Origin: Promethearchaeota archaeon | Lineage (GTDB): Archaea > Asgardarchaeota > Lokiarchaeia > Sigyniarchaeales > SOKP01 | DNA: 64,000 nt | Direction of reading: 5' to 3' | Assembly: GCA_048937405.1 (NCBI GenBank) | Contig: JBHLNF010000001.1 | Location: 192,001-256,000, forward strand | Part shown: positions 7,525 through 55,961 of the stretch, piece after piece | Layout: each line of letters starts with the position of its first letter | Numbering within the stretch: the stretch's first letter is position 1 | Translations under genes and position numbers: made by a program | Notes under the pieces: generated by a model | The model's database searches: none | What the model was told of the DNA's origin: nothing | The model's input: the letters and a program-made list of their open reading frames with translations, nothing else

Positions 7525-7543
7525 TGAGTTTAGGTGAAATAAA

Positions 7544-7693
7544 ATACCACAAGGCAAACATTTCGGTAAAGGCCAGAGAGAATGTAGAAGATGTCATACT
7601 CATAGAGGAGTAATACGACGGTATGGATTATATATATGTAGAAGGTGCTTTTATGAAATAGGAAAAGATATTGGATTTAAAAGATTTGAGTAA
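7544..7693 (+). CDS. rps14: 30S ribosomal protein uS14 (zinc-binding); missed by the ORF track, apparent ATA start
   Basis: Translates [48 protein letters not shown]; in-frame TGA at 7535, no in-frame ATG; SD GGTGA 6 nt before ATA. Confidence 0.93.
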
Positions 7694-7713
7694 TAATTAG
7701 AATAAAAAAAAGT

Positions 7714-7869
7714 GTGAATATCTATGACAAATACCATAGCAGATGCTTGTTGTGCCCTTAAAAATGCAGAAAGAGCACGTAAAAAGGAAGTTATTATTAG
7801 CCCTGCTTCTAAGGTTCTTCAACAAATTCTTCGAATATTCCAAAGACAAGCATATATTGGAGAATTCGA
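7714..7869 (+). repeat. Direct repeat copy 1 (rps8 SD plus 5' end), attL-like
   Basis: Matches 22740-22895; 3 mismatches in 146 coding nt (ACA/CCA, CTT/CTC, GGA/GGC) plus 2 in the spacer. Confidence 0.95.
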
Positions 7870-7885
7870 AGTCTGTTTATTATAA
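7724..7885 (+). pseudogene. rps8: Truncated 5' copy of rps8 (49 native codons plus VCLL-stop); left junction of the island
   Basis: MTNTIADACCALKNAERARKKEVIISPASKVLQQILRIFQRQAYIGEFE, then diverges into island sequence. Confidence 0.93.
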
Positions 7886-8245
7886 ATATTTTAAAACTAA
7901 ATTTCTAAACTCCTGTACTTTTATAGGTTTTGATATATATTGATTAAAACCAGATGACATAATACGTTCCTTATCTCCTTTCATTGCAAAAGAAGTTACA
8001 GCAATTATTGGTATATCTTTGAATTTTTCGATTTTTCTTAAATTTGAACAAATTTCTGTACCGTTCATTTCTGGTAATTGAATGTCTAGAATAATTAAAT
8101 CTGGATTACCTGATTTGATTAATTCAAATCCTAAATCACCTCTAGTTTCTTCAAAAATTTCAATATCGGGTATTAAATTTAAAATTGCTTTAAATAGCTT
8201 CATATTTTTTTCATTATCCTCAATAACATACACACTTTTTTTCAT
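7880..8245 (-). CDS. Single-domain response regulator (CheY/DivK-like receiver)
   Basis: IEDN, LIILDIQLPEMNG, AVTS, YISKP. Confidence 0.93.
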   Translation of the reverse strand: MKKSVYVIEDNEKNMKLFKAILNLIPDIEIFEETRGDLGFELIKSGNPDLIILDIQLPEMNGTEICSNLRKIEKFKDIPIIAVTSFAMKGDKERIMSSGFNQYISKPIKVQEFRNLVLKYL

Positions 8246-8401
8246 AAATCATTACCTACTTTTTTATTGAAACATAAAGAGAATTACGTGAATAATTCTT
8301 TTAAGGAAATTTTCACCTATGACTTCTAGATAAATCATTTTAGCTAAGATATATAAATTTTTAGAAATCTAAAATTGAAATAGAAGAATTGCAAATTGAT
8401 T

Positions 8402-9949
8402 TTAAGGACAAAATTTTAATTTTAGTTCTTGAGCTATATTAGCCATTTTATTTAGTTCTTCATAATCTTTTTCAATTATTGATTTCATGATATCAACCTT
8501 TAACTTTTTAATTTTTTCAAGAGTAATAGAAAATTCTTTATTAATATCCTCATATAATTTGTCTATGTTGCTATAAAGAAGTTGAGCTTGATTTTTATCA
8601 ATAATCTCAGAATTAATTATCTTTCTTTGATAAAAAGTATTTAATTCTTCTAACCAATTCCTTCCAATTTCTCCTATTGGTAGTAGATCATCGATTTTTC
8701 CTGTATTTAGCCCCATTTCAAATTTATCCTTATATTCATCGAATAAATTCCTGAAATAATTGTTAATTTTATTTTCAATGGCTTCTAAGTTAATATTAGG
8801 ATTCATAAAAAGAGTTACAGTATAATTATTATAACTAAAAATATGCATTTTTAAATTACTTCCTCTCAAACCAAAACCGGTTAAATCCTGAATATTTAGT
8901 TCCAAAGAAAATTTCTCCAACGCACTTATAAACATTGGAATCAATTCAAGATCAATTGGAATTATACTATCATCATTTGGAACACTTTGAGAAATATAAT
9001 CTTTAATAGCATTATCATATAATTCAAAATTTAATAACGATAATCCATCTTTATCTGATATTATTGCTCCTATGATCCCTGAATTTTTTTCTTCAGTCGG
9101 AATTTCTAATAAAGGAAAATTTCTCTCATCTTTATCATTTGAGACGGAGAAAAAATTCTCCAAAACTTTTTTGTATATTACCTTACCTTTATTCGTTAAA
9201 CTTAGAAGTGATTCATTTTTTACCTCTTTTACTTCAATATGACCTTTATTAATTAAATTTTCAACTAAATAATTTACCAATTTCTCAGGACGATTCAATT
9301 TTTCATAAAGAATATCTTTAGCAATAATTACATTTTTATCAATTTGATGTATGATTTTCAATGATTCATCAACCATATTCAATAATAATCCTTCATTAGG
9401 TAAGACATCTTGAAGGCAAGTTTTCATAATTTCAATGAAATATGAAAAAGTCTGATGAAAGTATTCCTTTTTCAAACTGGTAAATCGAAAATTTATTAGA
9501 GTATCATTTGAGAAACTATTCTTAATTATCGATCTAATTTCTCTGATTTTCTTTTCACTTACCAAATCTATTTTATGTAATAATACAAAAATAAAGGTGG
9601 ATGGAGTAAGATCATTTCTTAAATCAATAACTTTTCTTACAAAATTAATGATCTCATCATTATTAGATTTAATGTCAATTACTACCAATATTAGTTTAGT
9701 GTCATAAAAAATTCTTTTTTCATCTGTTTCAAGCCATCGTTTATTTTCTTGACCAGCTAGATCAAATATACCAATATCTTCATTTAAACCTGGTAATCGC
9801 AATATTAATGATTCTTCTCCATATGTTGGGTCTAAAGCATATTCTAGTAACTTAGATGAACTTTCTCCTTCAAAAAAGACTTTACGAAGGGTTGTTTTCC
9901 CAGCATTTGGTGGTCCTACAAATATAATTTTTTTTCCTATTTTGATCAC
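8402..9949 (-). CDS. Rag/Gtr-like GTPase fused to winged-helix and C-terminal roadblock/longin-like domain
   Basis: GPPNAGKT, PTYG, DLAGQ, HKID, FTSL; LVENLINKGHI...LSLTNKG wHTH; IIGAIISDKDGLSLL...FISALEKFS. Confidence 0.75.
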   Translation of the reverse strand: MIKIGKKIIFVGPPNAGKTTLRKVFFEGESSSKLLEYALDPTYGEESLILRLPGLNEDIGIFDLAGQENKRWLETDEKRIFYDTKLILVVIDIKSNNDEIINFVRKVIDLRNDLTPSTFIFVLLHKIDLVSEKKIREIRSIIKNSFSNDTLINFRFTSLKKEYFHQTFSYFIEIMKTCLQDVLPNEGLLLNMVDESLKIIHQIDKNVIIAKDILYEKLNRPEKLVNYLVENLINKGHIEVKEVKNESLLSLTNKGKVIYKKVLENFFSVSNDKDERNFPLLEIPTEEKNSGIIGAIISDKDGLSLLNFELYDNAIKDYISQSVPNDDSIIPIDLELIPMFISALEKFSLELNIQDLTGFGLRGSNLKMHIFSYNNYTVTLFMNPNINLEAIENKINNYFRNLFDEYKDKFEMGLNTGKIDDLLPIGEIGRNWLEELNTFYQRKIINSEIIDKNQAQLLYSNIDKLYEDINKEFSITLEKIKKLKVDIMKSIIEKDYEELNKMANIAQELKLKFCP

Positions 9950-11260
9950 TTAAATTTTTTTATTGAAGTAATATATATTTTTTAATTTTTGTTTGATTTG
10001 ACCAATTGTCCAAATTAATTTATTTGCACTAAGAGTTTCTGAAAAACAAACTAAATTTTTAAGATTAAATTTTTGATAATTCAAACTGTTCATAATAATA
10101 TTCAAATTAGAACTTGAGAGAATTAAATGTTCAATTCTATCATTTTTAGATACATTTTCGAAAGTTTTATTTAATTGGGTTATAAGTTTATGCGAATGAT
10201 TGATAATTATCGTGTTAAAATCTTTCGTAATAGATTGTGCTACTATACTATCATTTAAATTAGTAATAAAAAACATAGTTTTTGAAAAATTTGATATCAT
10301 ACTATCCAACAGGTTCTTTAAGTGAAAAGTATATTTTGAAAAATTGCTTAATAATTCATAAAATGCATTATAAAGGCTATAAATTAAATTTGGATAAATA
10401 CTTGTATAATAAATAGACACATCAAATTTCATTTTTAAAATGTTTGTAAGGTCTTTAAGATACTCTTTTCTAGATCCTTTCTCTATTAAATCAATTTTAT
10501 GGATGAAAAGAATTAGTTGAGCAGTATAGGAGTTATCTTGTAAAATTTCAATGACTTGTTTGATATCCTCCATGATTAATTGTTCATTTGTAATCCATGT
10601 TGGATAATCAAAGAGATATACTATAAAGTCAGTATTCTCAAATGCTAGAATTTGGTCATTATTTTTATTATTTTCCAGAAGTTGACTGAGTTCTTGTCCA
10701 GAAGAATCAAATAAACCTACCTTCAAATCTAACCATGAATAAACTGATGGCGATATTCCTCGAGTCGGTTCTAAAGGATTTGTTATTAAATTTATTGGAT
10801 CATATCCTTCAAAGACAATTTTCTTAATAGTTGTTTTTCCTGTACCTGGTCTACCAATTATCAATATCTTTTTAGCTGAAGACTTAATAAAAAAAGTATC
10901 AATTTTCTCTTGGAAATATTTTTTTTTATCATCTTCAGATTTTCCTAAGAATTTTCTGGCAAATTTAATAAATTCAGATTTTTGATTATATAAATTAATC
11001 TTTTCTTTTTCTTCCAGTATAATAAGAATTATTTCATATCCAATCTCAGAAACTTTTGATTTATCACAATAACTAAGTATAATATTATCTTTATATGTAA
11101 TTTCAATTAACTCACCCTTCTTAAAATCATCTTCATAGGAATGAGTCATATATATTTTATTGATTAATTCATCCGTTAGTTTTAATTCTAAAGGATATTT
11201 CAGCTCAAGCGTAGCACCCATTTTAGTATCCCAACTAAAAAACGCTAAACCTTTAACCAT
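9950..11260 (-). CDS. Longin/uDENN-like N-terminus plus Rag/Gtr-like GTPase plus roadblock-like C-terminus
   Basis: FSWDTKMGATLELKYP; GRPGTGKT, PTRG, DSSGQ, HKID, YTSI. Confidence 0.75.
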   Translation of the reverse strand: MVKGLAFFSWDTKMGATLELKYPLELKLTDELINKIYMTHSYEDDFKKGELIEITYKDNIILSYCDKSKVSEIGYEIILIILEEKEKINLYNQKSEFIKFARKFLGKSEDDKKKYFQEKIDTFFIKSSAKKILIIGRPGTGKTTIKKIVFEGYDPINLITNPLEPTRGISPSVYSWLDLKVGLFDSSGQELSQLLENNKNNDQILAFENTDFIVYLFDYPTWITNEQLIMEDIKQVIEILQDNSYTAQLILFIHKIDLIEKGSRKEYLKDLTNILKMKFDVSIYYTSIYPNLIYSLYNAFYELLSNFSKYTFHLKNLLDSMISNFSKTMFFITNLNDSIVAQSITKDFNTIIINHSHKLITQLNKTFENVSKNDRIEHLILSSSNLNIIMNSLNYQKFNLKNLVCFSETLSANKLIWTIGQIKQKLKNIYYFNKKI

Positions 11261-11266
11261 TAAATC

Positions 11267-13411
11267 TCAACTCTCTATTTTTTCTTTTAATTTTTTAGTT
11301 ATAGTAAAAGTAAATGTTGATCCTGTACCTAATACGCTATTAAATGTTATACTTCCTCCATGTAATTCTACAAGCCTTTTGGTTAATGATAATCCAAGTC
11401 CGGTCCCAGGAACAGAGCGTACATATGTAGAATCTACTCTTTTAAATTCCTTGAAGATCAGAGAAAAATCTTTTTGATCTATTCCAATACCTGTATCATT
11501 TACTTTAAAAACCCATTGACCATATTTTTCTTGTATTTTTACTGTAATTTGACCTTCAAGAGTAAATTTAATAGCATTACTTAAGAGATTCAATAAAATT
11601 TCTTTGAATCGAATTGGATCTGCATAAATATATTTTTTTTCATCTAATCCTTTAATCTTTAATTTAAGGTTCTTTCTATTATACATAGGCTTTAAGCTTG
11701 ATTTAATTTGTTCAAATATGTTATTTAATGAAACCTTTTGAATATTCAAGTTTATTTGTCCAGATTCTATTTTTGATATATCTAAAATATGTTTAATCAT
11801 ATCAAATTGATGTTCTGCAGAATTTTTTATATCGGTAACAAATTCCTTTTGTTCATCATTTATTTGACCATAAACACCCTCTAATAATAAATCAGAAAAT
11901 CCAATAATAGCATTTAAAGGAGTCCTTAATTCATGTGACATTGTAGCCATGAATTCTGTTTTAAACTGAGAAGACTTTACTATTTGATCCATGTATAATT
12001 TCTGCTGTTCAAGGGTTTTATTTAACTCTTTAGTTCTATCCTGAACTTTTTGTTCTAATTCATCTTTAAATTTCTCTTCTAAAAGTTCTGAGGTCTTTTT
12101 TTCAGTAATATCTTTAAAAATCAGTTGAAATAGAGTTCCAGGCTTCTGTTTTATAATAGAAGCTTGAATTTCAACCCAAATACTTTCTCCATCCTGTTTT
12201 TTTAACTCAACCTCAACAGGTTTTGGAAAATTATTTTCAAAATTGGCATGAAAAATTTTCTTAAAATAAAGCTTAACTTCAAAAGGAAAGAAGTTGATAA
12301 GCTCATCTATTGATTTTTGAATAAAATAATCCCTTTCATAACCAAATATTTTGTCTGTAGTAAAATTAGCATCAACAACAATTCCATTAAAGTTTATTAT
12401 TAATATGGCATTTGGTGAGTTATCAAATAAATCTTTGTATCTTTTTTCAACAAAAATTTGATCAGTTATATCCCTCGAAATAACAAGAATTCTCACTTGC
12501 CCATCTTTATTTATAAAATTTTTAAAATTACATTCATGCCATAGCCAATGGCCCTCTTTATGTTTAATTCGCAATTTTATAGTACTTTTTTCACTTTTTA
12601 ATGGATCTTTTAATAATTTTGATATCTTTCCTTTATCTTTTGGATGAAGAAAATCCAGATATGATTTTTCCAATATCTCTTTCTTTTTGTATCCTAGCAG
12701 TTTAAATGCTATTTTTTCATTAAAATATTTAACTATTAATTTCAAACTAAGAATTATGATTAAATCATTTATATTTTCTTCAATGCGAATATGTTTCTCT
12801 TCTGATTCTTTCAACATTTTTTTTATTATATAATGTTCTATACCATTTCCAATAATTTGTGAAGATAATCGTAAAATTGATAACTGTGTCTCATTCGACT
12901 CTTTATGTATTGAATCATTTAAATATCCAATAAATCCTGCTAAGTCTTTTCTAATATATAGTGGAAACACCAATAGAGATCTGATATTATTAAGATTTAA
13001 TAACCTTTTTGTAGCTTTTGCTTCATCAGTTAAACTAGAAATATCATAAATATTGATAATTTTTCCTTTTCTAAGTTGATTATTCCACCATGGAAATTTT
13101 AAAAGCCATGAATTGTTAAAGTATTCAAATAACGGTTTAATTCCTTTTGCACACCATTCATACGTATTTTTTAAATTAATCTCATTAAAATTAATAATAT
13201 ATAAAACAACCCGACTCGCTTTGTTTAAAAACCCAATATCACGTAATGTAGCATTAATAATATCATTAATCTCGATATCTCCAAAGAATCGAGATGAAAT
13301 TGTTGAAATCAAAGTTTCTAAATCTGACCAAAATTGAACCAGACATTTTACATTTTGTTTTACATCATTTTTTTCTCCAAAAATATTTTCTTTGTTGTGA
13401 ATTCCACTCAT
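11267..13411 (-). CDS. GAF-PAS-PAS sensor histidine kinase
   Basis: NTYEWCAKG (GAF), FLHPKD (PAS), MSHELRTPLNAIIGF, NLLSNAIKFT, DTGIGI, GTGLGL. Confidence 0.95.
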   Translation of the reverse strand: MSGIHNKENIFGEKNDVKQNVKCLVQFWSDLETLISTISSRFFGDIEINDIINATLRDIGFLNKASRVVLYIINFNEINLKNTYEWCAKGIKPLFEYFNNSWLLKFPWWNNQLRKGKIINIYDISSLTDEAKATKRLLNLNNIRSLLVFPLYIRKDLAGFIGYLNDSIHKESNETQLSILRLSSQIIGNGIEHYIIKKMLKESEEKHIRIEENINDLIIILSLKLIVKYFNEKIAFKLLGYKKKEILEKSYLDFLHPKDKGKISKLLKDPLKSEKSTIKLRIKHKEGHWLWHECNFKNFINKDGQVRILVISRDITDQIFVEKRYKDLFDNSPNAILIINFNGIVVDANFTTDKIFGYERDYFIQKSIDELINFFPFEVKLYFKKIFHANFENNFPKPVEVELKKQDGESIWVEIQASIIKQKPGTLFQLIFKDITEKKTSELLEEKFKDELEQKVQDRTKELNKTLEQQKLYMDQIVKSSQFKTEFMATMSHELRTPLNAIIGFSDLLLEGVYGQINDEQKEFVTDIKNSAEHQFDMIKHILDISKIESGQINLNIQKVSLNNIFEQIKSSLKPMYNRKNLKLKIKGLDEKKYIYADPIRFKEILLNLLSNAIKFTLEGQITVKIQEKYGQWVFKVNDTGIGIDQKDFSLIFKEFKRVDSTYVRSVPGTGLGLSLTKRLVELHGGSITFNSVLGTGSTFTFTITKKLKEKIES

Positions 13412-13476
13412 AATTTAACTTTAATTTAATCTATCTTATACATTTTTGATACAAATAATATCTATTCAATAAAAGA

Positions 13477-14166
13477 TCATTCACAATGATCTTTGGGAAA
13501 TTGTTCTTCAAGAGCTTTCATAATATCGTTGCAAGAATCCAAGATCATGTTAATGTAATTCATAATCTCAGGTCTAGATATTTTTCTATTTATATTTTGA
13601 TCTATTATTAACTCACCAAATCCTCGAATTGTGTTAATTCCACTCCGAATCTGCATATTTATGGATTCTAAAGGTAGGATTTCATCTTTTTGCATATAAA
13701 TCTTATTTATTTCTTTAATAAAATTCTCAAATTCATTTTTATCATCAGACAAAATTTTATTACGTTTAATTTTATGAAAAATCATTCCAATTTTTTTGAA
13801 ATGAAGTATTGGTATTATAGAATAGCCAACATCCCGAAGTAGTATTATAGCATATAATTGTTTTCCTCCCCTTGCTGATAAATCCTCTATTTCGATCTTA
13901 TAGATTTGGGCATAAAAATTATTAAAATCTAATATAACAAATTGATTTTTAGTATTTAGCGCGTCTCTTAAAAGATTTTTTACAAATTCTTCATTTTTCA
14001 GAGGAATTTGAGAATATAGGGCTCTTGGACCTAATGTATGATCATATTTTCCAATAATCATAATAAAAGGATATTTTTCTAAATTATGCTTAAGAGTTGA
14101 ATAAATATCAAGATTTTCCTCTTCACGTTTATTTTTAAATTGGATATCTTTTATAATTTCTTTCAT
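13477..14166 (-). CDS. Longin/uDENN-like domain fused to a degenerate (His-less) HisKA-like helical hairpin
   Basis: GKYDHTLGPRALYSQIP and ARGG..YAIILL; C-terminal NMQIRSGINTIRGFGELI aligns with SHELRTPLNAIIGFSDLL. Confidence 0.6.
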   Translation of the reverse strand: MKEIIKDIQFKNKREEENLDIYSTLKHNLEKYPFIMIIGKYDHTLGPRALYSQIPLKNEEFVKNLLRDALNTKNQFVILDFNNFYAQIYKIEIEDLSARGGKQLYAIILLRDVGYSIIPILHFKKIGMIFHKIKRNKILSDDKNEFENFIKEINKIYMQKDEILPLESINMQIRSGINTIRGFGELIIDQNINRKISRPEIMNYINMILDSCNDIMKALEEQFPKDHCE

Positions 14167-14375
14167 TTTTTTTCCATGTAAATTAAATGATATATACTAA
14201 ATCTTAAGAATAAAAAAATCCTTATTGAAAGAAGTTTTTTATCCTTAGAATGATTTCTAAATTAATTGGAAAAGAATTGATATTTAATCTTTACTATTTA
14301 ATAAAGTGTATGAGTTATTAGGAAAAAAAAGAAATTTTTGTACAAATTTATATAATAGAAGCATATTAATAATTT

Positions 14376-15860
14376 ATGTCGGAATCCGCAAATACTATTA
14401 TAAAATATTTCTGCGATCGCTTTTTAGATATTGAATACTATCCTTCTAATTTGAAGGCAATTTTGGATTTTGATTTGCATAAAATAAAAAATATTAAAAA
14501 AGAAGATTTGCTGAAATTCCAGAAATTTAATATAAAAACCTTTCGAGATCTATGTAATTTAGATCAATCTGATTATGATCGGTTGATAAATCATTCATTT
14601 ATAGAAAAAAATCTACTAAATAATATTATTATTGCAGCAACTTTAATTGCTAATTCATGGAATAAAAGAAGTATTTACTTGAATAAACCAAAAATGAAAG
14701 TTGTTGTGGCTGGTCTTGATTTTGCAGGTAAAACATCTTTAATTAATAGATTGATTCACGATTATAACTACAATGATATGAATAATATTGAGCCAACAAT
14801 AGGGACAAATATAGAAGAATATCACTCAAAATGGCTGAATTTAATATTATGGGACTTAGGTGGCCAAAAGGATAATATAAATGAATATTTAGAATCTCCA
14901 GAAAAATTTTTTGTACAATTAGATGTTTTAATTTTTGTCATTGATGCCCAAGATGATAATAGATATAATGAAGCGGTTCGTTATTTGAATGATTTAATTG
15001 AAATATTTACATTTTTAAATGAAAATCCATATATCCTTGTATTGATAAATAAAGTAGATTCTGATATAGCAGAGGATCCAGATTTTCAAATTAAACTTGA
15101 ATATTTAATGGATAAAATAACTAATATCTTTATTAATAGTCAAAAATCATGGAATTTTGAGCTCATACCTACAAGTATCTATAATTTTTATTCTTCAGAA
15201 CCCGAGATTGCTAAAAGCATTAAAAAAATCTTTACAAAAGAAAAATCAGAAACACATTTGGATACTATAACGGAAATTAATGAGAAATTAGAAAGAATTT
15301 TAAATATAAACCTAGAATTAATGGATAAAATAGTATCTGATTTTTCCAAAATAAAACAAACCTTATTTAGATTTACACACTCTAATGTTTCTCAATCACT
15401 ATTTAACATTCCAATTCAGGATGTTCCCTGCAAGAATAGTTTTGATAAACAAAAAACAAATCAGAAAGATAGGACAAAGAAAAAAGAATCGAAAAAAAAA
15501 GAATTAAAAAAGAGAGAAAGAATAAAAAAAGTTATAGGTCCCCCGAAACGTTTAGAATCTATTATATCACCAAATGAAATTACACAAAATATAAAAAATA
15601 ATCATAAAATTACTGAAGAAAAATTGAAAGAAATAAAAAACGATTTAACCCCAACTCCTAAATCGTCTGATTTACGATCAACCCCACCAATAGCTCCTAA
15701 AAAAGGTTATTTAAGTAAAGCTGATCTTAAACCTCCACCCCCGCCACCAAAAATTGCAATTAAAAATGATACTTCATTACAAGGGAATAGAAAACAAATT
15801 ATTTCAGAATTAAAGGAATTATTTATAAGAAGAGGGTTAGTCCCTCATAAAAATATTTAA
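14376..15860 (+). CDS. Arf-like GTPase with N-terminal helical (HhH-like) domain and C-terminal Lys/Pro-rich tail
   Basis: GLDFAGKT, PTIG, WDLGGQ, NKVD; PPPPPP followed by RKQIISELKELF. Confidence 0.8.
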   Translation: MSESANTIIKYFCDRFLDIEYYPSNLKAILDFDLHKIKNIKKEDLLKFQKFNIKTFRDLCNLDQSDYDRLINHSFIEKNLLNNIIIAATLIANSWNKRSIYLNKPKMKVVVAGLDFAGKTSLINRLIHDYNYNDMNNIEPTIGTNIEEYHSKWLNLILWDLGGQKDNINEYLESPEKFFVQLDVLIFVIDAQDDNRYNEAVRYLNDLIEIFTFLNENPYILVLINKVDSDIAEDPDFQIKLEYLMDKITNIFINSQKSWNFELIPTSIYNFYSSEPEIAKSIKKIFTKEKSETHLDTITEINEKLERILNINLELMDKIVSDFSKIKQTLFRFTHSNVSQSLFNIPIQDVPCKNSFDKQKTNQKDRTKKKESKKKELKKRERIKKVIGPPKRLESIISPNEITQNIKNNHKITEEKLKEIKNDLTPTPKSSDLRSTPPIAPKKGYLSKADLKPPPPPPKIAIKNDTSLQGNRKQIISELKELFIRRGLVPHKNI

Positions 15861-16400
15861 TTATCGTTTAGAACAAATGAAAAATATTATAATTCGTATG
15901 AATTGTCTTTTTAATATTCAATTTTATCGGATTATAAAATTTATATTCCGCTCTTTTCCCTAACTTATTAGAATGTGATGTTCTCCATCATATTATTTTA
16001 TTTGTATTTATTTAAAGTGTGTTTTATATTCCAAGATAAAATTTTTTCTTAAGATCTATTTTAAACTTATATCTAAATCAGTTTGAATGAAATAAATCTT
16101 GAAATCATTAAATTAAGGACTTTAGCAAGATAAAAAGATAATTTAATTCAAACTTATCAAATCTTATAATAAAGTGAATTTTTTATCTTTTACTTCTTAT
16201 GATTTCTACTACTATTCACAAATATGGAAGCGAAATATAAAGAATTACTTTAATACCTGTAATAAATCAAGTTTCTAACTAGTAAATTCAACTTTTTTTA
16301 CTAGTAATTTGTGATTTTTTAATGGACTATGCATTTCGAAAAAATTAAAAATATGAAATTTATTGCTTTTATGGAGTAATTAATAGAACATTATTTTATT

Positions 16401-18746
16401 ATGCGGAAAAAAATTCAATCATTAGAAAAATTCAAAATAAAAAATAGACCTTTTAATCATAATATTTTAGAGGTTATAGTAGAAATAAATCTAGATGGAA
16501 AGTTTATTTGTTTTAGTCCACAGGTTTATGATCTTTTCGGTTTTCGACCAAAAAAGTTAATCAAGCTAAATGAACAAAATTTCATCCATCCAGAAGATTT
16601 ATCACTTTATAGAGAAGTAATTGATAAGGTAAAAAACTTTAAAGAAACATTTATTGTAGATTTAAGAGTGAAGCACAATAAGGGATATTATGTCCCAATT
16701 TCATTAAAGGTTAATTTAATCTTACCTAATAATACAAAAAAAATAATTGGTATAATAAGAGATATTTCAGATATCAAAATTTCCAAGTTAAAATTTAAAG
16801 AATCTAAAGAGAAATATCTAAACATTATCAATAATATGATGGAAGGATATTTTGAAATTGATCTTAAGGGAAATTTTTTATATGCTAATGTGTATTTCTG
16901 TAAAACATTAAATTATTCTAAGGAAGAATTAATAGGAAAAAATTATCATTTTATTTATGAAAAAAAGACATGCGAACGTTTATTTAATATATTCACCCAA
17001 ATATATAAGACAGGGATACCTCATCCTCCAGAAGAAGTAATTAAAGTGGTAACAAATAAGGGTAAACTATTATATGTTGAAGGATCTATTCATTTATTAT
17101 ATGATTCTGAAGGATATAAGGTTGGATTTTATGGCTTAGCTCATGATACAACAAAAGAGATAAAAAACAATCAAAAATTAAAAGAATTCGAATTGAAATA
17201 TAGCAATATTCTCGAAAATATGATGGAAGGGTATTATGAAACTGATCTTAGGGGAAATTTTATATATGTTAATGCTGAGTATTGCAAAATTTTGGGATAT
17301 TCAAAAAAAGAATTATTAGGAAAGGATTATAGAACCTTTTATAATGTAGAGGGATTGAGTAATTTACAGAGTATTTTTACCAAAATATATAAAACTGGGA
17401 TACCTCACGCTCCAACAGGATTAGTAAAATTGGTGACAAAGAAAGGTAAACTTATATATTTTGAAGGTCCTGTTGATTTAATATATAGTTCGAAAGGAAA
17501 AAAGATAGGATTTTATGGGCTTATTCGTGATATAACAAAAAGAAAAATTGCGGAACAAAAATTAAAAGAGTCCGAAGAGAAATATCGAAGCATACTCGAA
17601 AATATGATGGAAGGATATTATGAAGTGGATTTAGAAAACAATATCATTTTTTTTAATGATTCTTTTAATAAGATATTAGGACATCCAAAAGAGAAATTAT
17701 CAAATGAAAAATTTGATTGGTTTTTAAGTTCTCATAGTAAAAAGAGATTTTCCTTACTTTTTAATAATTTATTAGAGAATAAAATGTCATTTTTAATTTC
17801 CCAGTTTGAAATAATAAATCAAAAAGGAGAAATTATAAATGTCGAAACTTCAATATATCAAAAACAAGATATGAAAGGAAATATAATCGGATTCGGAGGA
17901 TTATTGCGGGACATTTCTGAAAGGATGCAAATCGAAGAAATGAGAGAAGAATTTACTGAAGAACTCCAAAATCAAGTAGTTCAAAGAACTCAGGAACTAA
18001 ATGAAGCATTAGAAAAGCAAGAATTATACATTCAAGAGATATTGAAGTCTTCTCGTTTTAAAAGCGAATTTATGTCTGTGATGTCCCATGAGCTGAGGAC
18101 ACCTATGAATGCCATCATAGGTTTTTCTGATCTTTTGATGGAGGGGGATTTTGGTCAACTTAATGAAAATCAAAAAGACTTCTTATATGATATAAAAGGG
18201 TCTGCTAACCACTTACTAAATATAATTAATCATATACTTGATATCTCGAAAATAGAGTCAGGTAATTTGAATTTGAAGATAAAAAAGATTCAACTGGATA
18301 TAGTTATAAAACAAGTCAAAGGAACACTTAAAACTTTATTTGATAATAAGAATTTAACATTTAAGGTGATTGGGTTGAAAAAGAATAAGGTTATCAATGT
18401 AGATCCTATAAGGTTTAAAGAGATTCTTTTCAACCTATTAAGCAACGCAATTAAATTCACCTTAAAAGGAATTATTACTTTGAAAATTTCTGAAGATGAG
18501 ATGCTATGGAAATTTGACGTGATTGATACAGGTATTGGTATAGCTAAGGAAAATTTAGGGTTTATTTTTATGGATTTTAGAAGAATTGATGATCCCCATG
18601 TAAATTCAACAGAAGGAACTGGACTTGGCCTTTCTGTTACAAAAAGACTAGTCGAGCTCCATGGTGGAAGTATCAGTTTTACAAGCGAATTTGGGAAAGG
18701 ATCTACATTTTCCTTTACAATTCCTAAAGATTTAAAAGAAGGGTAA
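16401..18746 (+). CDS. Multi-PAS (4x) sensor histidine kinase
   Basis: FIHPED; three ENMMEGY-type PAS repeats; MSHELRTPMNA, NLLSNAIKFT, GTGLGL. Confidence 0.95.
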   Translation: MRKKIQSLEKFKIKNRPFNHNILEVIVEINLDGKFICFSPQVYDLFGFRPKKLIKLNEQNFIHPEDLSLYREVIDKVKNFKETFIVDLRVKHNKGYYVPISLKVNLILPNNTKKIIGIIRDISDIKISKLKFKESKEKYLNIINNMMEGYFEIDLKGNFLYANVYFCKTLNYSKEELIGKNYHFIYEKKTCERLFNIFTQIYKTGIPHPPEEVIKVVTNKGKLLYVEGSIHLLYDSEGYKVGFYGLAHDTTKEIKNNQKLKEFELKYSNILENMMEGYYETDLRGNFIYVNAEYCKILGYSKKELLGKDYRTFYNVEGLSNLQSIFTKIYKTGIPHAPTGLVKLVTKKGKLIYFEGPVDLIYSSKGKKIGFYGLIRDITKRKIAEQKLKESEEKYRSILENMMEGYYEVDLENNIIFFNDSFNKILGHPKEKLSNEKFDWFLSSHSKKRFSLLFNNLLENKMSFLISQFEIINQKGEIINVETSIYQKQDMKGNIIGFGGLLRDISERMQIEEMREEFTEELQNQVVQRTQELNEALEKQELYIQEILKSSRFKSEFMSVMSHELRTPMNAIIGFSDLLMEGDFGQLNENQKDFLYDIKGSANHLLNIINHILDISKIESGNLNLKIKKIQLDIVIKQVKGTLKTLFDNKNLTFKVIGLKKNKVINVDPIRFKEILFNLLSNAIKFTLKGIITLKISEDEMLWKFDVIDTGIGIAKENLGFIFMDFRRIDDPHVNSTEGTGLGLSVTKRLVELHGGSISFTSEFGKGSTFSFTIPKDLKEG
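16811..17960 (+). repeat. Tandem PAS-domain duplication with 384-bp period
   Basis: gaaatat...aatatgatggaagg recurs at 16811, 17195 and 17579. Confidence 0.75.
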
Positions 18747-18750
18747 AGAT

Positions 18751-19131
18751 TTGATAAAAAAAATATTTATCATTGATGATTATGAGAGAAATTTAAGGTT
18801 ATATAAAGCGACATTTAATGGTGCCCCTAATTTAGATATCATTACGGAGAGAGATGGGATAAAAGGTTTAGAGATGTTAAAAGAGAGTAATCCAGATCTG
18901 ATTATTTTAGACTATAAACTAACAAATATAACTGGTGTTGAGATATGCAAAGAGTTAAGAAAAATAGAAAAATTCAAAGATATTCCAATAATTATGGTTT
19001 CTTCAACCCCTATTGAAAAAGATGTTGATAGAGCAACCTATTTTAAGGAAGCTGGTTTTAATTTATATTTCTCAAAACCAATAAACATTAAAAAATTTAG
19101 AGAAATCATAAAAAATCTATTATTCAAATAA
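18751..19131 (+). CDS. Single-domain response regulator
   Basis: IIDD, LIILDYKL, VSS, FSKP; 4 nt after the histidine kinase. Confidence 0.93.
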   Translation: MIKKIFIIDDYERNLRLYKATFNGAPNLDIITERDGIKGLEMLKESNPDLIILDYKLTNITGVEICKELRKIEKFKDIPIIMVSSTPIEKDVDRATYFKEAGFNLYFSKPINIKKFREIIKNLLFK

Positions 19132-19376
19132 TCATCTAATAAAACAATACTAGATTAAGTAGAACTATACTTTATAGATTTAAGTTTTTATTCCTTTGTT
19201 CTATAATTAGATTTTACTTTATAATTTTTTAAATATTTATTACCATATTATTTCTTTAAATAATTTAAAATTTCTGAGATTTGTAATTATTATGAAAGCT
19301 CTAATTAGATATGAATAATCTAACTGGTGGATTCTTTCTGTATCATTGTTTAATATTTCGAATTATGACATCTTCA

Positions 19377-20114
19377 TTAGGCAAGAATGTAAGGTTTTTC
19401 GTTTATCTCAGGAATCAAAATTATGAAATTACTACCCTTTTTATAATCCCCTTTCACTTTATCTTCCACCCAGATATAACCATTATATTTCTTTATTAAT
19501 TTTTTAACAAGAGTTAGTCCAAAACCCATTCCATTCAAACATTCTCGGATTTCATACTCTTTTTGAAAAATAGATTTTTTCCTTGCATTGGTAATACCAA
19601 CTCCGTTATCAATAAATTCGATTTTAACAAAAGAAGTATTATTCAGAATTATTTTTGAGACGTTAATTAATATTTGAATATTTGAGTTTTTATTGTGATA
19701 TATTGCATTAAATATAATATTCTCAAATACATTCTGCAATAATTTATCTCCTTGAACATATAATCCATTAAAATATGATTTTCGAATGCTTGAATAGTTG
19801 AAATTAATTTTTATATTATTTTCAGGAAATGATGATTCAATATATTCTATGGATGTCTTTAATAAATGGAGAACATCAATAGGTTGAAGAGAATTGTTAG
19901 AATCATCAAAATTAGTTACATTTTTCACATTTGAAATTATTTGAATTCCCCTCATCACCTGTTTATTTATAATATTCATACAAATTCTCATTTGTTCAGG
20001 TTTGGTTAAAGAAAAAGAGCAAAGTTGTAGAGAAGACTGAATAATATGAAGAATAGTCCCAAAATCATGAATTAAAATATCTCCATATGTATCAAATACA
20101 TTTTTTTTCTCTAT
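19377..20114 (-). CDS. Sensor-less histidine kinase (HisKA-like plus HATPase); extends upstream of the ORF call to an apparent ATA start
   Basis: H-box ILIHDFGTIL lies in frame upstream of 19991; ENIIFNAIYH, DNGVGI, GMGFGL; GGTGA 6 nt before ATA 20114, in-frame TGA further upstream. Confidence 0.8.
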   Translation of the reverse strand: MEKKNVFDTYGDILIHDFGTILHIIQSSLQLCSFSLTKPEQMRICMNIINKQVMRGIQIISNVKNVTNFDDSNNSLQPIDVLHLLKTSIEYIESSFPENNIKINFNYSSIRKSYFNGLYVQGDKLLQNVFENIIFNAIYHNKNSNIQILINVSKIILNNTSFVKIEFIDNGVGITNARKKSIFQKEYEIRECLNGMGFGLTLVKKLIKKYNGYIWVEDKVKGDYKKGSNFIILIPEINEKPYILA

Positions 20115-20328
20115 TGTTTGTCACCAATTATGATGCTAATTATTTTTATTGAATTTTTTTTATCTTTCTTATAAAGATTTAATTGTATTTTATGGTAAAA
20201 TTTGGATTACAATACTATAAAGATTGACATTTCTATAAAAAAACTTATATTTAAATCTTTTTTTTCCAAAAAGGTGTATTACAATAAAGATCATTTAATT
20301 TTTGAAATGAGTTTTTCATCTGTAAATT

Positions 20329-22739: not shown

Positions 22740-22895
22740 GTGAATAATTATGCCAAATACCATAGCAGATGCTTGTTGTGCCCTCAAAAATGCAGAAAGA
22801 GCACGTAAAAAGGAAGTTATTATTAGCCCTGCTTCTAAGGTTCTTCAACAAATTCTTCGAATATTCCAAAGACAAGCATATATTGGCGAATTCGA
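22740..22895 (+). repeat. Direct repeat copy 2 (rps8 SD plus 5' end), attR-like
   Basis: Near-identical to 7714-7869. Confidence 0.95.
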
Positions 22896-26501: not shown

Positions 26502-26518
26502 TCTAAAGGTGAAAAATT

Positions 26519-27001
26519 ATTACACGAAAATATCCAAGAAAAGTTAGAAGCATGAGAGGAAGACGTACTCACGGTTATGGGAGAGTAGGTCAACATAGAA
26601 AAACTGGACAACGCGCTGGCAGAGGAAAAACTACTCAATGGAAAAAAAGTAAAAAAAGCTATTATTTAAAACAAAAAGAACTCGGTTTTCCAGACCCAGA
26701 TTGGGATATTGGGAAGAAGGGATTTAAGAGACCTCAAGATATTTTAAGAATTTATAAAGTAAATACAATTAATGTAAAAGATTTAGATCAAAAGATTGAT
26801 AATCTTGTCCTTGACAATAAAGCCACAAAATCTGGCAGTACATATAGCATAAATATGAATGAAATTAATATTCAGAAACTTTTAGGAAAAGGAGAAATAC
26901 ATAAAGCAATCAATATAACTGTTAATAAGGCATCTCAAAAAGCTATTGAAAAGATTGAAGATGCCGGTGGCAAAATTACCCTATTGTCTCAAGCAGAATA
27001 A
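26519..27001 (+). CDS. rpl15: 50S ribosomal protein uL15; probable ATT start upstream of the ORF call
   Basis: TRKYPRKVRSMRGRRTHGYG; KLLGKG, ASQKAIEKIEDAGG; in-frame TGA at 26510 lies inside the GGTGA SD. Confidence 0.93.
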   Translation: MTRKYPRKVRSMRGRRTHGYGRVGQHRKTGQRAGRGKTTQWKKSKKSYYLKQKELGFPDPDWDIGKKGFKRPQDILRIYKVNTINVKDLDQKIDNLVLDNKATKSGSTYSINMNEINIQKLLGKGEIHKAINITVNKASQKAIEKIEDAGGKITLLSQAE

Positions 27002-42327: not shown

Positions 42328-42419
42328 TAAATTTTTAATTTTTTTCTACTTACTCCCAATTTAATTTTGTAAATAAAAAATAAAAAGGTGAATTTTTTCT
42401 TATACCAATTGGTTGTTTT

Positions 42420-43307
42420 GTGATATTACTTCCAAATGATGCTGATTATAAGGTTATGGGATATTATTTTAAAGAGAGTAACTCTGATTTTAAAATTTCA
42501 AACGATTTGTTTCTCCGGCTAAATCTTGATCATTCTAAAAATGAATATAATTTATTAAAATTAAAGGATTATCAAATTTTCTCATATCTCTATAATTTTA
42601 AAGGTAAATTAACTCTAAAGGCCTCTGGACTCATTATTGGCTTACTCTTAAATGAGAATGATGAACCAGAAAAATTTCGATCATCTCTTAAAGCTGGGGC
42701 TGAAGCATTCGAAATTCCTAGTCTCAACATTTTGAAAAAATCGACAAATGAATTTGAAATTCTATTAAAGGAGATTTACTTAGAGCATTTAGAACCATTA
42801 GGTGATAGTTTGGAACCTGAAGCTTTAAAAAACAATATTATAAACATAACTAAATTTATGATCAGTGGTGGAAAAAAAGAAAGAAAAATTGCTCAAGAAC
42901 TAGTAGAGAAAATTGAATTAGGGGAACATAATAAAATTTCTGAGTTTTACAAAATGGCTGAAAATGCTATTAAATCGTTAGATTATGAGAAAGCTGCAAA
43001 ATTTTACTTAAAAGCTTCTGAAATAGCTGAAGGGTTATATGTAATGGATATAGCTTCCTTCCTTAAAGAAAAAGGTGCGTTTTCTCAACAAATTCCCGAT
43101 TTATCAAAAGAAAGAGAAAGAATTGTACAAGAAGCACGAAATGCTCTTAGAAATGAAGATTTTCATAAAGCATATACCTCTTACAGAAAAGCAAGCAGTA
43201 TCTCTAAAAAACTTATTCAATATGATAAAGAAGAGGAATATAGACTAAAATCAAAAGCGTTAGAAGACTTCTATAAAATTGATGAAAAATATAGAAAAAA
43301 TAAATAA
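42420..43307 (+). CDS. Longin-like N-terminus plus TPR-like repeats (possible ATA start at 42402)
   Basis: DYEKAAKFYLKASEIA and DFHKAYTSYRKAS helical repeats; in-frame (I)PIGCFVIL upstream. Confidence 0.6.
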   Translation: MILLPNDADYKVMGYYFKESNSDFKISNDLFLRLNLDHSKNEYNLLKLKDYQIFSYLYNFKGKLTLKASGLIIGLLLNENDEPEKFRSSLKAGAEAFEIPSLNILKKSTNEFEILLKEIYLEHLEPLGDSLEPEALKNNIINITKFMISGGKKERKIAQELVEKIELGEHNKISEFYKMAENAIKSLDYEKAAKFYLKASEIAEGLYVMDIASFLKEKGAFSQQIPDLSKERERIVQEARNALRNEDFHKAYTSYRKASSISKKLIQYDKEEEYRLKSKALEDFYKIDEKYRKNK

Positions 43308-48175: not shown

Positions 48176-48259
48176 GGAAAATAATAAAATTAATATTTTT
48201 TTAGCAATTTAAAACTATAAACAGTTTATATTCATCTTACAAAAAAAAAGGTAATAATA

Positions 48260-48529
48260 ATTCCTCGTCCCAGTTTACGATCAAAAGCTCAAGCAAGAAA
48301 AAAATTGAGTACTCCAGGCAATAAAAATGTTACTCATTACTGGAGAAGAAAACCTAAAAGAGCAAATTGCGCAATATGCAAAAAACCACTTCAGTCTATT
48401 CCAAGATTACGCCCCTCTAAAATGGTGAAAACACGAAAAACTGCAAGAAGAACAAACAGAATAGAAAGTGGAAGGTATTGTGCAAAATGTCTTCAGACTT
48501 TAATAAAAGAAGCTGTTTGGAGTCAGTAA
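48260..48529 (+). CDS. rpl34e: 50S ribosomal protein eL34; apparent ATT start
   Basis: (I)PRPSLRSKAQARKKLSTPG; CAICKKPL; CAKCL. Confidence 0.93.
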   Translation: MPRPSLRSKAQARKKLSTPGNKNVTHYWRRKPKRANCAICKKPLQSIPRLRPSKMVKTRKTARRTNRIESGRYCAKCLQTLIKEAVWSQ

Positions 48530-49581: not shown

Positions 49582-49631
49582 TTAAATAAAATCATATCTT
49601 AAATAATATTTTATTCTTAAATTTTTTTCAT

Positions 49632-49762: not shown

Positions 49763-49788
49763 TATTCCTTATAATTTCCCTAAATATC

Positions 49789-52689: not shown

Positions 52690-52764
52690 ATTTTATAACC
52701 TCTTTTTTATTTTTTTTATCATTTTATTTGTAATTTTAATTGAAATTTAATAAAGATCTAATTT

Positions 52765-53658
52765 TTATCCAAATAATCCTCCAATACCAACACTTTCAGA
52801 TTCTTCTTCCTCCTCTGGTTCTTTTTCCTCAACTTTAGGTTTCTCCACTTCAGTTGGAGTGGGAATTCCTTCTCCGAAAATAACAGCATTTAAGGTATTT
52901 AATTCAGCAGCAGCTTTTCGAATATATTCCTCTGTCATATCATCTAGGAAGAAAGGCATCTCGAATACGATCCCCAGTGCTTCTCGATAAGCTCTAGACA
53001 CATTTTGAGCAAATTGTTCCATATCCATATATAATATCTCTTCTGGTATAATTTCTCCATCACTCCACGCAAAATGAATTTTAATCAATGATTCAATAGG
53101 CGTTATTCCTAGTTTTTTCAAAACTGCTGCTTGTTTCACATTAACTAAATCACCTGCTTTATGGGTTCTGGTATCTTCACGAACGTGAATTGTATCATTC
53201 ATTATTCTTGTAGGAAGTCTTAAAATCATGTTCAGTTCACTTATTACTTGTCCCGTAGGTAATCCAGTATCTCCGGCTGGAACCCATATATCTACTGGAG
53301 TAATTTCATTTGGTTTTGCTGGAACCCTCCATTCATTTTCAAGAAAAATGGATTTTAACTCGAATAAATCAATATTTGTGAAAACTAGACTTGATTGACC
53401 CGGGATATTCTGTGCTAATTCTTCTAAATTTTTCTTTTTAGATTTTTTTTTAAATTCTTCTATTGCTCGTAGTTGGAGGGATCTTTTTGACATTCGAAAT
53501 TCTGCTCTCCCTCTTAACATCTTCCTCATCGTCTGGATTTGTTTATCACTAATATGAGCAACTTCTATTACAGCAACATTCTTATAATTTTTAAATAAAT
53601 CAATTAAATAATTAATCTCATCAATTTTCCATTGTGGAATATGTTTGTTTTTAATCAT
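52765..53658 (-). CDS. rpl10: Ribosomal protein uL10/P0
   Basis: IPQWK, PAGDTGLPTG, acidic GIGGLFG tail. Confidence 0.96.
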   Translation of the reverse strand: MIKNKHIPQWKIDEINYLIDLFKNYKNVAVIEVAHISDKQIQTMRKMLRGRAEFRMSKRSLQLRAIEEFKKKSKKKNLEELAQNIPGQSSLVFTNIDLFELKSIFLENEWRVPAKPNEITPVDIWVPAGDTGLPTGQVISELNMILRLPTRIMNDTIHVREDTRTHKAGDLVNVKQAAVLKKLGITPIESLIKIHFAWSDGEIIPEEILYMDMEQFAQNVSRAYREALGIVFEMPFFLDDMTEEYIRKAAAELNTLNAVIFGEGIPTPTEVEKPKVEEKEPEEEEESESVGIGGLFG

Positions 53659-53662
53659 CTCT

Positions 53663-54391
53663 TCACACCTTGATAGTTTTTAGGAATTCTTCTTGCACTT
53701 TTACAGGTTTTCCCATGGTTGATTTAAGATACATGGATTTAAAATTATTAAATTTATGGGGCATTTGATCAGCGATAAAATCTATAACGGTTTTCATATT
53801 TTCATATAATTTTTCCTGTTCCATAGATTTTTTCCCTATCTTGATAAAAATGATAGGCTGTCTTCTCATTTGAATTCGTATAACCTTTTTATAACGTTCA
53901 TAAGCTAGCTTTAAATCTTCTGGACTAGTAATTATTCCATATCCTGTAGGGAAAGGTTTTGGCATTTTTCCAACAGGTCCGAGAAATCTTGCCAAATATC
54001 TCGCAACATCCCTCATCATTTTATCTTCAACAACAAAATAATCATATTTTTTGGCAAATTTTTTCTTAAATTTCTTCTCCTCATTATTTATACTTACCAG
54101 CCCATTTGAATCTACTGTATCTACACCAAGTTTTTTCGCTTCTAATAGGATCTCATCGGAGGCGATTACGCAAATATTCGGTTTATCCCCTGTAATAACT
54201 TCATTTGTTAATATAATTTCTTTATCAATTCTGTTTTTTGGATCGTTCAAATTGATGTCTTTAATATTTATGATAAGATCAATTGATTCATCAAATTTTC
54301 TTACCTTATCTTTGAACCCTTCCTTTTTAATTACAGAAAAATCGATTGCGGCATTCAATGATCTTTTTAACAATTTATCGTCTACTTTCAA
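53663..54391 (-). CDS. rpl1: Ribosomal protein uL1
   Basis: RKFDESIDL, LGPVGKMPKP, KSTMGKP. Confidence 0.96.
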   Translation of the reverse strand: MKVDDKLLKRSLNAAIDFSVIKKEGFKDKVRKFDESIDLIINIKDINLNDPKNRIDKEIILTNEVITGDKPNICVIASDEILLEAKKLGVDTVDSNGLVSINNEEKKFKKKFAKKYDYFVVEDKMMRDVARYLARFLGPVGKMPKPFPTGYGIITSPEDLKLAYERYKKVIRIQMRRQPIIFIKIGKKSMEQEKLYENMKTVIDFIADQMPHKFNNFKSMYLKSTMGKPVKVQEEFLKTIKV

Positions 54392-54397
54392 GCTTTC

Positions 54398-54892
54398 TTA
54401 TTCACCCTTTATGTTATCACTATATTCTCCATTTGTAATTCGTTTTTGAATAATTCTAGGATCTTCCCCTTCAACGGTCAAACCTACTGATAAAGCGGTT
54501 CCTAAAACTGTTTTAATTGCTGCTTTATTTGTTTTATCTAAGAATTTCTCTTTCTTCGCATCAACCACATTTTGAATCTGTTCTAAAGTTAGGTTACCAA
54601 TTTTCTGTTCGGAACAACTAGAACTCCCTTTTTCAACTCCTACTTCTTTAAGCAATAATGATGCGGTAGAGGGTGTTTCAATAAATATTTCAAATTCTTT
54701 TGTCTCTGGATCGCATTCAATTCTAACTGGAACTGTCAATCCCTTAAATACTTTTGTCTGTGCGTTAATTTCATCAACTACATCTTTGATATTTATACCA
54801 GTCGGTCCTACAGCAGGACCAATTGGAGGTCCCCCACTTGCACTTCCTCCAGTTACCAATGCTTTAACGATAACTTTTCCCTTTTCACTCAT
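54398..54892 (-). CDS. rpl11: Ribosomal protein uL11
   Basis: GGSASGGPPIGPAVGP, PSTASLL, GTALSVG. Confidence 0.97.
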   Translation of the reverse strand: MSEKGKVIVKALVTGGSASGGPPIGPAVGPTGINIKDVVDEINAQTKVFKGLTVPVRIECDPETKEFEIFIETPSTASLLLKEVGVEKGSSSCSEQKIGNLTLEQIQNVVDAKKEKFLDKTNKAAIKTVLGTALSVGLTVEGEDPRIIQKRITNGEYSDNIKGE

Positions 54893-55421
54893 TTTATGTC
54901 AGTCTTCTAATTATTTTTAAATTCAATGTTGATTTATAAAGGATAAGGAGCGTAAAAATATACGATATCATCTTTTTTTCATTTCAATATCTTAATTTAT
55001 ATTGAAACCGTTTTATTATTACGTCCTAAGTCTCTTTAAAATTACTTGAACTTAGTAATTATGTGAATGAAATAATGTTAAAAAATTTTTTTAAATTAAG
55101 AATAGAATGAACTCCTTCTAATTTTTCAATATGGATATTTAATAACTGGTTTCTAAAATGGTAAAAATAAACGGATAATCAAAATCTTTTGTATTAATTC
55201 CAATGATTTATTATTAGTATGGGTGGATTTTAACCTTTTATAGAGATCTATCTTTCATGGAAATAATTGGCTCTAGAAATTATAAATATTTTTTATTTTT
55301 AAGGGCTATTCATAATTCATAGATGATTATATCCATTAATAAAAGTTTAAAAAAAAAATTGGCTTATATTTAATATTAATCTTGAAAAAGTAATTTCAGT
55401 CTCCTCAACGGGGGATTAAGA

Positions 55422-55961
55422 ATTTCATTTGATTTTACCTATAAATTAGGTGTTTTTGGCGATACTGGTGTTGGAAAAACAACTCTAATTCATCGTTTTA
55501 TCACAGATAAATTTGAGTTAGACCTTGGTAGGTCTATGGGAGTCAATGTCAGCGCTAAAACCATAGATATAGAAGGTTTTGCTATAAATTTACAAATATG
55601 GGATTTTGTAGGTGAGCAGCGTTTCAAAAAACTTTTACCAATCTATTCTCGAGGGACTTTTGGAGGAATATTTATGTATGATATTTCTAATAAGACTTCC
55701 CTGTTAAACTTAATTGAGTGGATATCCATTTTTCATAATACACCGGGAGATAATAAAGATTCACCAATTTTAATCGTAGGAAGTAAATTAGATTTGGAGT
55801 TGGAGTCTAATAGAAAAGTATATCTTGAGGATGTATCTAATTTATCAAATTCTTATGAAATCATAGATATTATTGAATGTTCCGCAAAAACAGGTGAGAA
55901 TGTAGAAAAAGTATTTTTAACTTTAGTTCATGAGATTATCGCAAGATCAACCTATTTATAA
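55422..55961 (+). CDS. Rab-like small GTPase; P-loop lies upstream of the ORF call, apparent ATT start
   Basis: In-frame SFDFTYKLGVFGDTGVGKTT at 55425-55484; WDFVGEQRF, GSKLD, ECSAKTG. Confidence 0.88.
   Translation: MSFDFTYKLGVFGDTGVGKTTLIHRFITDKFELDLGRSMGVNVSAKTIDIEGFAINLQIWDFVGEQRFKKLLPIYSRGTFGGIFMYDISNKTSLLNLIEWISIFHNTPGDNKDSPILIVGSKLDLELESNRKVYLEDVSNLSNSYEIIDIIECSAKTGENVEKVFLTLVHEIIARSTYL

Follow-up and report, generated by a model that had tools for sequence, protein, structure and literature searches.

Near-cognate start codons in described systems and their probable use in the window

Reviews give the archaeal set of start codons as AUG, GUG and UUG only, and describe the initiation factor aIF1 as destabilizing complexes formed on non-AUG codons (PMC7531240; PMC6237735). 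Here we analyzed candidate translation starts at ATA, ATT and ATC, located behind Shine-Dalgarno (SD) motifs, in a 64,000-nucleotide stretch of DNA from a Loki-type Asgard archaeon (G000:C7:192001-256000; hereafter the window), as well as in the rest of its genome and in those of its relatives. The window carries two parts of a large ribosomal-protein operon, the rpl34e locus and many signaling genes. A literature search for ATA, ATT or ATC starts in Asgard or other archaea returned only one remark, made in a methods section, in which a “rare ATT start codon” was proposed for the Asgard tubulin gene atubA of Kariarchaeaceae (PMC13394414). The likeness to our case is that an Asgard gene had been deposited with an N-terminally short protein and an ATT lay at a plausible distance from the ribosome-binding site; the difference is that atubA is a single gene, from another Asgard family, presented without genome-wide or comparative analysis.

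AUU starts occur in bacteria at infC, which encodes IF3, and at pcnB of Escherichia coli. These resemble the sites described below in having a third-position near-cognate codon behind a good SD, conserved across species, and infC offers a further likeness in that the gene of a proofreading factor itself carries the near-cognate start, aIF1 being the functional counterpart of IF3. The features of this type of start (no canonical codon in frame from the upstream stop to the conserved N-terminus, an SD matching the 16S 3′ end at 5–7 nt, and a codon either conserved or interchanging with ATG) were also found here. The differences are that the machinery is the archaeal one of aIF1 and aIF2, and that the starts would extend beyond one or two regulatory genes to about 2% of all genes, abundant ribosomal proteins among them. 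In mitochondria, AUN initiation (NCBI tables 2 and 5), of which echinoderms reportedly provide an example, likewise makes use of ATA, ATT and ATC in an AT-rich genome. However, mitochondria employ one tRNA-Met with a modified C34, read internal AUA as methionine and lack an SD, whereas in our archaeon AUA stands for isoleucine, separate isoleucine tRNAs are encoded and a strong SD appears to be required.

Starts of the ATC type that are specific to a lineage, affect essential genes of replication and translation and escape standard annotation are also documented in Deinococcaceae, where N-terminal proteomics identified non-canonical starts for dnaA (ATC), rpsL (CTG) and infC (PMC2830850). That example is bacterial, experimentally proven and restricted to a handful of genes, while ours concerns dozens of genes and is comparative in nature. 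With accepted archaeal initiation the present system shares SD-led mRNAs and a well-conserved aIF1; unlike the accepted start set, that of this genus appears to include ATA, ATT and ATC at appreciable frequency. From sequence comparisons, we put the probability at roughly 85% that about 2% of the genes in this archaeon and its genus start at ATA, ATT or ATC behind a strong SD. The genes concerned very probably include those of ribosomal proteins S14, L15, L34e, S4 and S10 and of aIF1. The comparative evidence supports a mode of initiation that is known but usually rare, in a variant found throughout the lineage.

The genome assembly (G000; 4.47 Mb, 29 contigs, 29% GC) is a scaffolded metagenome-assembled genome (MAG) with 100-N gaps, rated 100% complete. 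A protein search with uL15 identified as its close relatives MAGs labeled Promethearchaeota or Promethearchaeia (Loki-type Asgard archaea). The comparison set contained one genome per species, so that relatives count as independent assemblies, and included a member of the same genus with a closed chromosome (G006; CP070831.1). Two outgroups represented another family of the order (G026) and a third family with 53% GC (G027).

Six sites in the window had been flagged in a first-pass annotation, and their coordinates and motifs all proved correct, the kinase codon lying on the minus strand at 20114-20112 (Table 1). All six were read from the upstream in-frame stop to the conserved N-terminus; none holds an ATG, GTG or TTG in that interval, and each has an ATA or ATT placed 5–10 nt past an SD-like motif. 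In rps14 a canonical codon is absent from the entire 51-codon frame. The first canonical codon of rpl15 is an ATG 11 codons downstream, and in rpl34e the stretch from a TAA at 48218 to a TTG located 13 codons downstream is free of canonical codons. For the Rab-like GTPase, the frame offers no canonical codon until an ATG past the P-loop. The histidine kinase is preceded on the minus strand by GGTGA (20125-20121) and the spacer CAAACA, its frame reading TGA CAA ACA ATA, and the ATA at 42402 is spaced 10 nt from a GGTGA at 42387-42391. The first-pass annotation had also noted that the spacing matches that of ATG genes, and rpl29 (GTGA-ttaaga-ATG) and rps8 (GTGA-atatct-ATG) indeed display the same layout of GTGA, 6 nt and start.

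Orthologous start sites and genome-wide counts

The start of rps14 was compared in 17 genomes, comprising G000 and 16 sister species. All 17 share the same layout, AGGTGA followed by a 6-nt spacer, an ATA, ATT or ATC, and CCA CAR GG, in which the letters of the spacer differ and its length is fixed. The start codon is ATA in 10 genomes, ATT in six and ATC in one, and is never ATG; genomes of another family have an ATG and a different N-terminus. A comparable pattern was observed for aIF1 (SUI1), which was identified in G000 as well as in 16 of the 18 sister genomes sampled. In all 16 genus genomes read (G000 and 15 others) the gene opens with AGGTTG TGA TAA ... ATT AAA GAC GAC, apart from variation in the stops (TGA AAA in one genome, a third stop, TAG, in another), and no ATG, GTG or TTG precedes the zinc knuckle. 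The homologous position in other families of the order is occupied by TTG, ATG or ATA. Since neither rps14 nor aIF1 has a canonical codon in frame, there is no alternative start for these two genes.

At rpl34e the arrangement AAGGTAAT-N4-ATT-CCN-CGT is conserved, with ATT as the start in 15 genomes, ATC in one and ATG in one (G005). One species (G003) has an in-frame TAA two codons upstream, which leaves the ATT as the sole remaining start. The situation at rpl15 is more fluid. The ATT of its ITRK sequence is conserved, the preceding codon (-1) being ATT, ATC, ATA, ATG or a non-start codon; one subclade has an ATG one codon later, and one MAG (L230) has an ATG at the position of the ATT. Among relatives, ATG, GTG and ATT/ATC/ATA swap at codons -1, 0 and +1. 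For the protein that begins at 42402, all 17 genus orthologs carry ATG at exactly the same codon, behind the same AAAGGTG. Outside the window, the codon at the uS10 site is ATA in G000 and likewise in G006, and uS4 has ATA in G000 and ATG in G006. The first-pass annotation had suggested looking for ATA or ATT alternating with ATG at the same site, and such alternation was seen for rpl34e, the 42402 gene, uS4 and rpl15. It appears that exchange between ATG and the three near-cognate codons among sister species is nearly neutral where the SD is strong.

The remaining two sites belong to large families. Rab-like GTPases number 70–100 candidates per genome in the genus and the kinase family 20–50. 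The nearest homolog of the Rab gene (G007) has GAGGGATTAAGG-ATA at the equivalent site and no canonical codon upstream, and that of the kinase (G008, 62% identity) has an ATG one codon off the equivalent site. One subgroup of Rab/Ras-like GTPases was observed with starts of the form GGTGTT-N4-ATC-GAR-CAY-AAA, in which the SD includes the in-frame GTG.

These comparisons bear on the possibility that ribosomes initiate instead at the first canonical codon further downstream, in which case the conserved residues ahead of it would be untranslated and the shorter proteins real. In-frame codons are available for this purpose at rpl15 (+11), rpl34e (TTG, +13), the 42402 gene (GTG, +6), the kinase (+41) and the Rab gene (+38), and the public calls P0087 and P0046 use such codons. 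However, the explanation is impossible for rps14 and aIF1, and elsewhere the P-loop, the H-box, the MPRP N-terminus and the ITRKFPKKVRK stretch of rpl15 all sit upstream of the first canonical codon, so that the first three of these would be lost. Furthermore, the skipped codons evolve like coding sequence: the 11 codons ahead of the downstream ATG of rpl15 vary synonymously among relatives, one arginine being written AGA, CGA, CGT, CGC or CGG and one proline CCA or CCT. The SD also precedes the ATA, ATT or ATC rather than the downstream codon. We therefore regard downstream initiation as very unlikely.

Genome-wide counts were obtained with two scans. In the strict scan, every GGTGA in G000 was located and the triplet 1–12 nt downstream was recorded; triplets were kept if they opened a frame of at least 80 codons, had an in-frame stop no more than 20 codons away, and were neither preceded by a canonical codon nor followed by one in the next five codons. 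At a distance of 6–7 nt, such frames were opened by ATG (26), TTG (14), GTG (5) and CTG (3), and by ATA (19), ATT (17) and ATC (6). AT-rich control codons were nearly absent (AAT, TAT and TTT once each; AAA and TTA never). The matches include uS4 ((M)GDPRR), uS10 ((M)QKARIRL), TFS/RpoM ((M)RFCEQCG), IscU ((M)YSEKVMDHF) and several small GTPases.

The looser scan covered 3,604 non-overlapping open reading frames (ORFs) of G000 and accepted 4-mer SD motifs. First candidates supported by an SD were ATG in 339 cases, TTG in 96 (in agreement with the earlier remark that TTG starts are common), GTG in 18, ATT in 63, ATA in 40 and ATC in 16. The last three codons were thus observed 119 times against ∼41 expected (odds ratio 2.9, p=4e-17), at a control-codon rate of 0.9%. 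The excess amounts to ∼78 genes, or ∼2% of genes, and this number is a floor because only SD-marked starts are visible to the method. An SD match of at least 6 nt was found at 35% of the ATA/ATT/ATC starts (∼45% after background removal) vs. 20% of the ATG starts, and the spacing was tighter at the former, with a peak at 6–7 nt. Among the genes with the strongest SD, roughly half open with ATA, ATT or ATC.

The looser-scan statistic was also applied to 800 kb each of G006, G026 and G027. The same-genus genome G006 had an odds ratio of 3.8 (p=1e-7), and no significant excess was detected in the 800 kb of either G026 (odds ratio 1.2) or G027 (0.9). The habit therefore marks the genus and not the entire order, with the qualification that ATA also seems to be the aIF1 start codon in one other genus (G024, G028). 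This distribution fits the earlier proposal of relaxed start-codon selection in this lineage.

Initiation machinery and competing explanations

A pattern search located the 3′ tail of the 16S rRNA in the sister species G006, G018 and G002 as well as in the outgroup G026; in all four it reads ...CTGGATCACCTCCT. Its GGATCACCTCCT segment, as read in the three sister species, is complementary to GGTGA, which identifies GGTGA as a true SD. The Rfam archaeal SSU model gave no match on the closed genome G006, although the 3′ end of the 16S gene is present there. Initiation at the near-cognate codons would most likely proceed as follows. A strong SD, usually GGTGA 6–7 nt before the codon, would pair with the 16S tail ...GGAUCACCUCCU and set the near-cognate codon in the P site, where the ordinary initiator tRNA (CAU) would pair with bases one and two of the codon and tolerate a mismatch at base three. 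Such tolerance would allow all three isoleucine-type codons to serve as starts, and would have to be greater here than in other archaea. We infer that Met-tRNAi is used, that SD strength offsets the weak codon, and that the level of aIF1 may set the efficiency of these codons.

Alternatively, a dedicated change in decoding might be responsible, be it a second initiator tRNA for AUA, AUU and AUC, a modified C34, or a reading of AUA as methionine. In its favor, the three codons are used approximately in proportion to background, which resembles mitochondrial AUN starts, and a second initiator gene could have been overlooked among the intron-filled tRNA genes, which mostly escape detection. ARAGORN and Rfam recovered only ∼20 tRNAs in G000 because most tRNA genes carry one to three introns. 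However, a hand search of G000 found a single gene of initiator type, with A1:U72, a GGG:CCC anticodon stem and the anticodon CAT (CAU), and no second copy. The genes for tRNA-Ile(UAU), tRNA-Ile(GAU), the elongator CAT tRNA and the initiator CAT tRNA are all separate, that for tRNA-Ile(UAU) being intron-bearing and located on the same contig as the window (C7), and ATA occurs at conserved isoleucine positions within S14; the mitochondrial arrangement, in which a single tRNA-Met reads AUA as methionine, is thus not what this genome encodes. A further point that could be cited for altered decoding is that none of the order's 31 genomes gave a match to TiaS (PF08489, TiaS_FLD), while control archaea score. 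TiaS is equally missing in genomes without the excess, and its loss was for this reason rejected as the cause. Given the absence of TiaS hits and the presence of tRNA-Ile(UAU), AUA is probably read in a eukaryote-like way. Overall, we consider a dedicated decoding change very improbable.

Two other candidate causes were examined and rejected. A change in the anti-SD was dismissed because the 16S tail is identical in G006, G018, G002 and the outgroup G026. Loss of or damage to aIF1, the factor that the first-pass annotation had singled out for inspection, does not apply either: the gene is present and well conserved, its protein and M. jannaschii aIF1 (PDB 4MO0) can be aligned along their whole length, and no lineage-specific change could be tied to fidelity.

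Several observations weigh against widespread initiation at ATA, ATT and ATC. Background accounts for about one third of the candidates from the looser scan. No true orthologs exist for the kinase or the Rab gene, each of which has one usable near homolog. By sequence, a shorter product is possible for rpl15, the 42402 gene, the kinase and the Rab gene, all of which have an in-frame canonical codon downstream. The full-length alignment of aIF1 reveals no visible lesion, and the 16S tail, being the same in G026, a genome without the excess, does not explain the permissiveness of the genus. Finally, searches with universal motifs did not find the 16S gene in the G000 assembly.

Coupling between termination and reinitiation in operons, by which ribosomes would restart without a proper start codon, is less probable still. 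It would suit rps14 and rpl15, which lie 10–20 nt past the stop of the preceding ribosomal-protein gene. Yet rpl34e, the Rab gene, the 42402 gene and aIF1 follow long AT-rich intergenic regions, and the codon is always ATA, ATT or ATC at a fixed SD spacing rather than an arbitrary one. The least credible explanation is that assembly or sequencing errors (one-base homopolymer indels or miscalled bases) hide ATG or GTG starts in this scaffolded, gap-containing MAG: a TAATG stop-start overlap does lie 20 nt upstream of rps14 in a different frame, the SD of rpl15 contains an out-of-frame GTG, and an A8 run follows the ATA of the kinase, but an identical frame structure recurs in 15–17 independent species assemblies with spacers of constant length and varying letters, the TAATG with its ATG is missing upstream of rps14 in several sister species, and the genome-wide excess is limited to ATA, ATT and ATC at one spacing. 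The caveat raised at first pass, that an indel might link rps14, rpl15 or the kinase to an upstream start, is refuted for rps14 and rpl15 by the constant spacer length and the lack of conservation of the TAATG.

If near-cognate initiation operates as proposed, the start of aIF1 itself invites a more tentative suggestion, to which we give rather less than even odds. A weak start on the gene of a fidelity factor, as expected under autoregulation, is what the ATT of aIF1 represents in 16 of 16 genomes. The AUU might close a feedback loop in which low aIF1 leads to more initiation at AUU and hence to more aIF1. Such a loop could set the stringency of proofreading, and the roughly 80 or more genes with ATA, ATT or ATC starts could then form a translational regulon read via the level of aIF1, its possible members being S14, L15, L34e, S4, S10, TFS, IscU and many small GTPases. 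If true, both infC/IF3 and eIF1 autoregulation would have a counterpart in archaea, within the lineage closest to eukaryotes. More generally, the data suggest a looser choice of start codon in close archaeal relatives of eukaryotes. A genus in which ATA, ATT and ATC appear to rival ATG behind the strongest SDs, and in which the proofreading factor seems to start at AUU, would be a natural system for studying what sets fidelity of the aIF1/eIF1 type and how such fidelity evolved close to the root of the eukaryotes.

Gene calls, feature coordinates and the interrupted ribosomal-protein operon

The first-pass annotation had predicted systematic truncation by gene callers, which holds in part. Some L34e calls, from other sources, are shortened to 74–84 aa. 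On the other hand, calls of the NCBI type already make use of ATA and ATT: the public call P0121 independently starts S14 at the ATA at 7544, the public call for L34e of G000 starts at an ATA, and NCBI calls place the L34e start of relatives at an ATT that is, judging by SD spacing, two codons too early. With callers restricted to ATG, GTG and TTG, uS14 and aIF1 would be lost outright in these genomes, and the N-termini of dozens of proteins would be clipped, including P-loops and catalytic motifs. Losses of this kind would distort marker-gene estimates of completeness, protein families and structure predictions for Asgard archaea.

Table 1. Positions of the candidate start sites and associated genes (window coordinates, unless a contig of G000 is named).
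Feature	Position	Strand	Remarks
rps14 SD GGTGA	7533..7537	+	its TGA is the in-frame stop ahead of the start; AGGTGA kept in 17 genus genomes
rps14 (uS14, 49 aa)	7544..7693	+	putative start ATA 7544-7546 after spacer AATAAA
stand-alone histidine-kinase core (H-box and HATPase_c, 245 aa)	19377..20114	-	putative start ATA 20114-20112
rpl15 SD GGTGA	26508..26512	+	spacer AAAATT to ATT 26519
rpl15 (uL15, 160 aa)	26519..27001	+	putative start ATT 26519 or second ATT 26516
conserved 301-aa protein (weak TPR match)	42402..43307	+	putative start ATA 42402
rpl34e SD-like GGTAA	48250..48254	+	one mismatch to GGTGA; AAGGTAAT conserved in genus
rpl34e (eL34, 89 aa, N-terminus (M)PRP)	48260..48529	+	putative start ATT 48260, spacer TAATA
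Rab-like GTPase SD-like GGGGGA	55410..55415	+	spacer TTAAGA to ATT 55422
Rab-like small GTPase (179 aa)	55422..55961	+	putative start ATT 55422; P-loop retained
aIF1 (SUI1)	C29:22004-22320	-	also L105:1477-1791
initiator tRNA gene	C3:4885-5051	-	spans 167 nt; intron after anticodon loop, more in T arm

The ribosomal-protein operon of the window is interrupted. The first 161 bp of rps8, together with its SD, are duplicated at 96% identity (7708-7868 and 22734-22894); the upstream copy is cut to ∼52 codons, and the intact rps8 follows ∼15 kb later. The intervening 15-kb insert (∼7869-22733) splits the operon, so that rps14 and rpl15 lie 19 kb apart here vs. 3.9 kb in sister species, and could be a real insertion or a misjoin. 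No integrase was seen with Pfam among the ten ORFs of the insert that were tested. Its contents comprise response regulators, PAS histidine kinases and three Gtr1/RagA-like GTPases.

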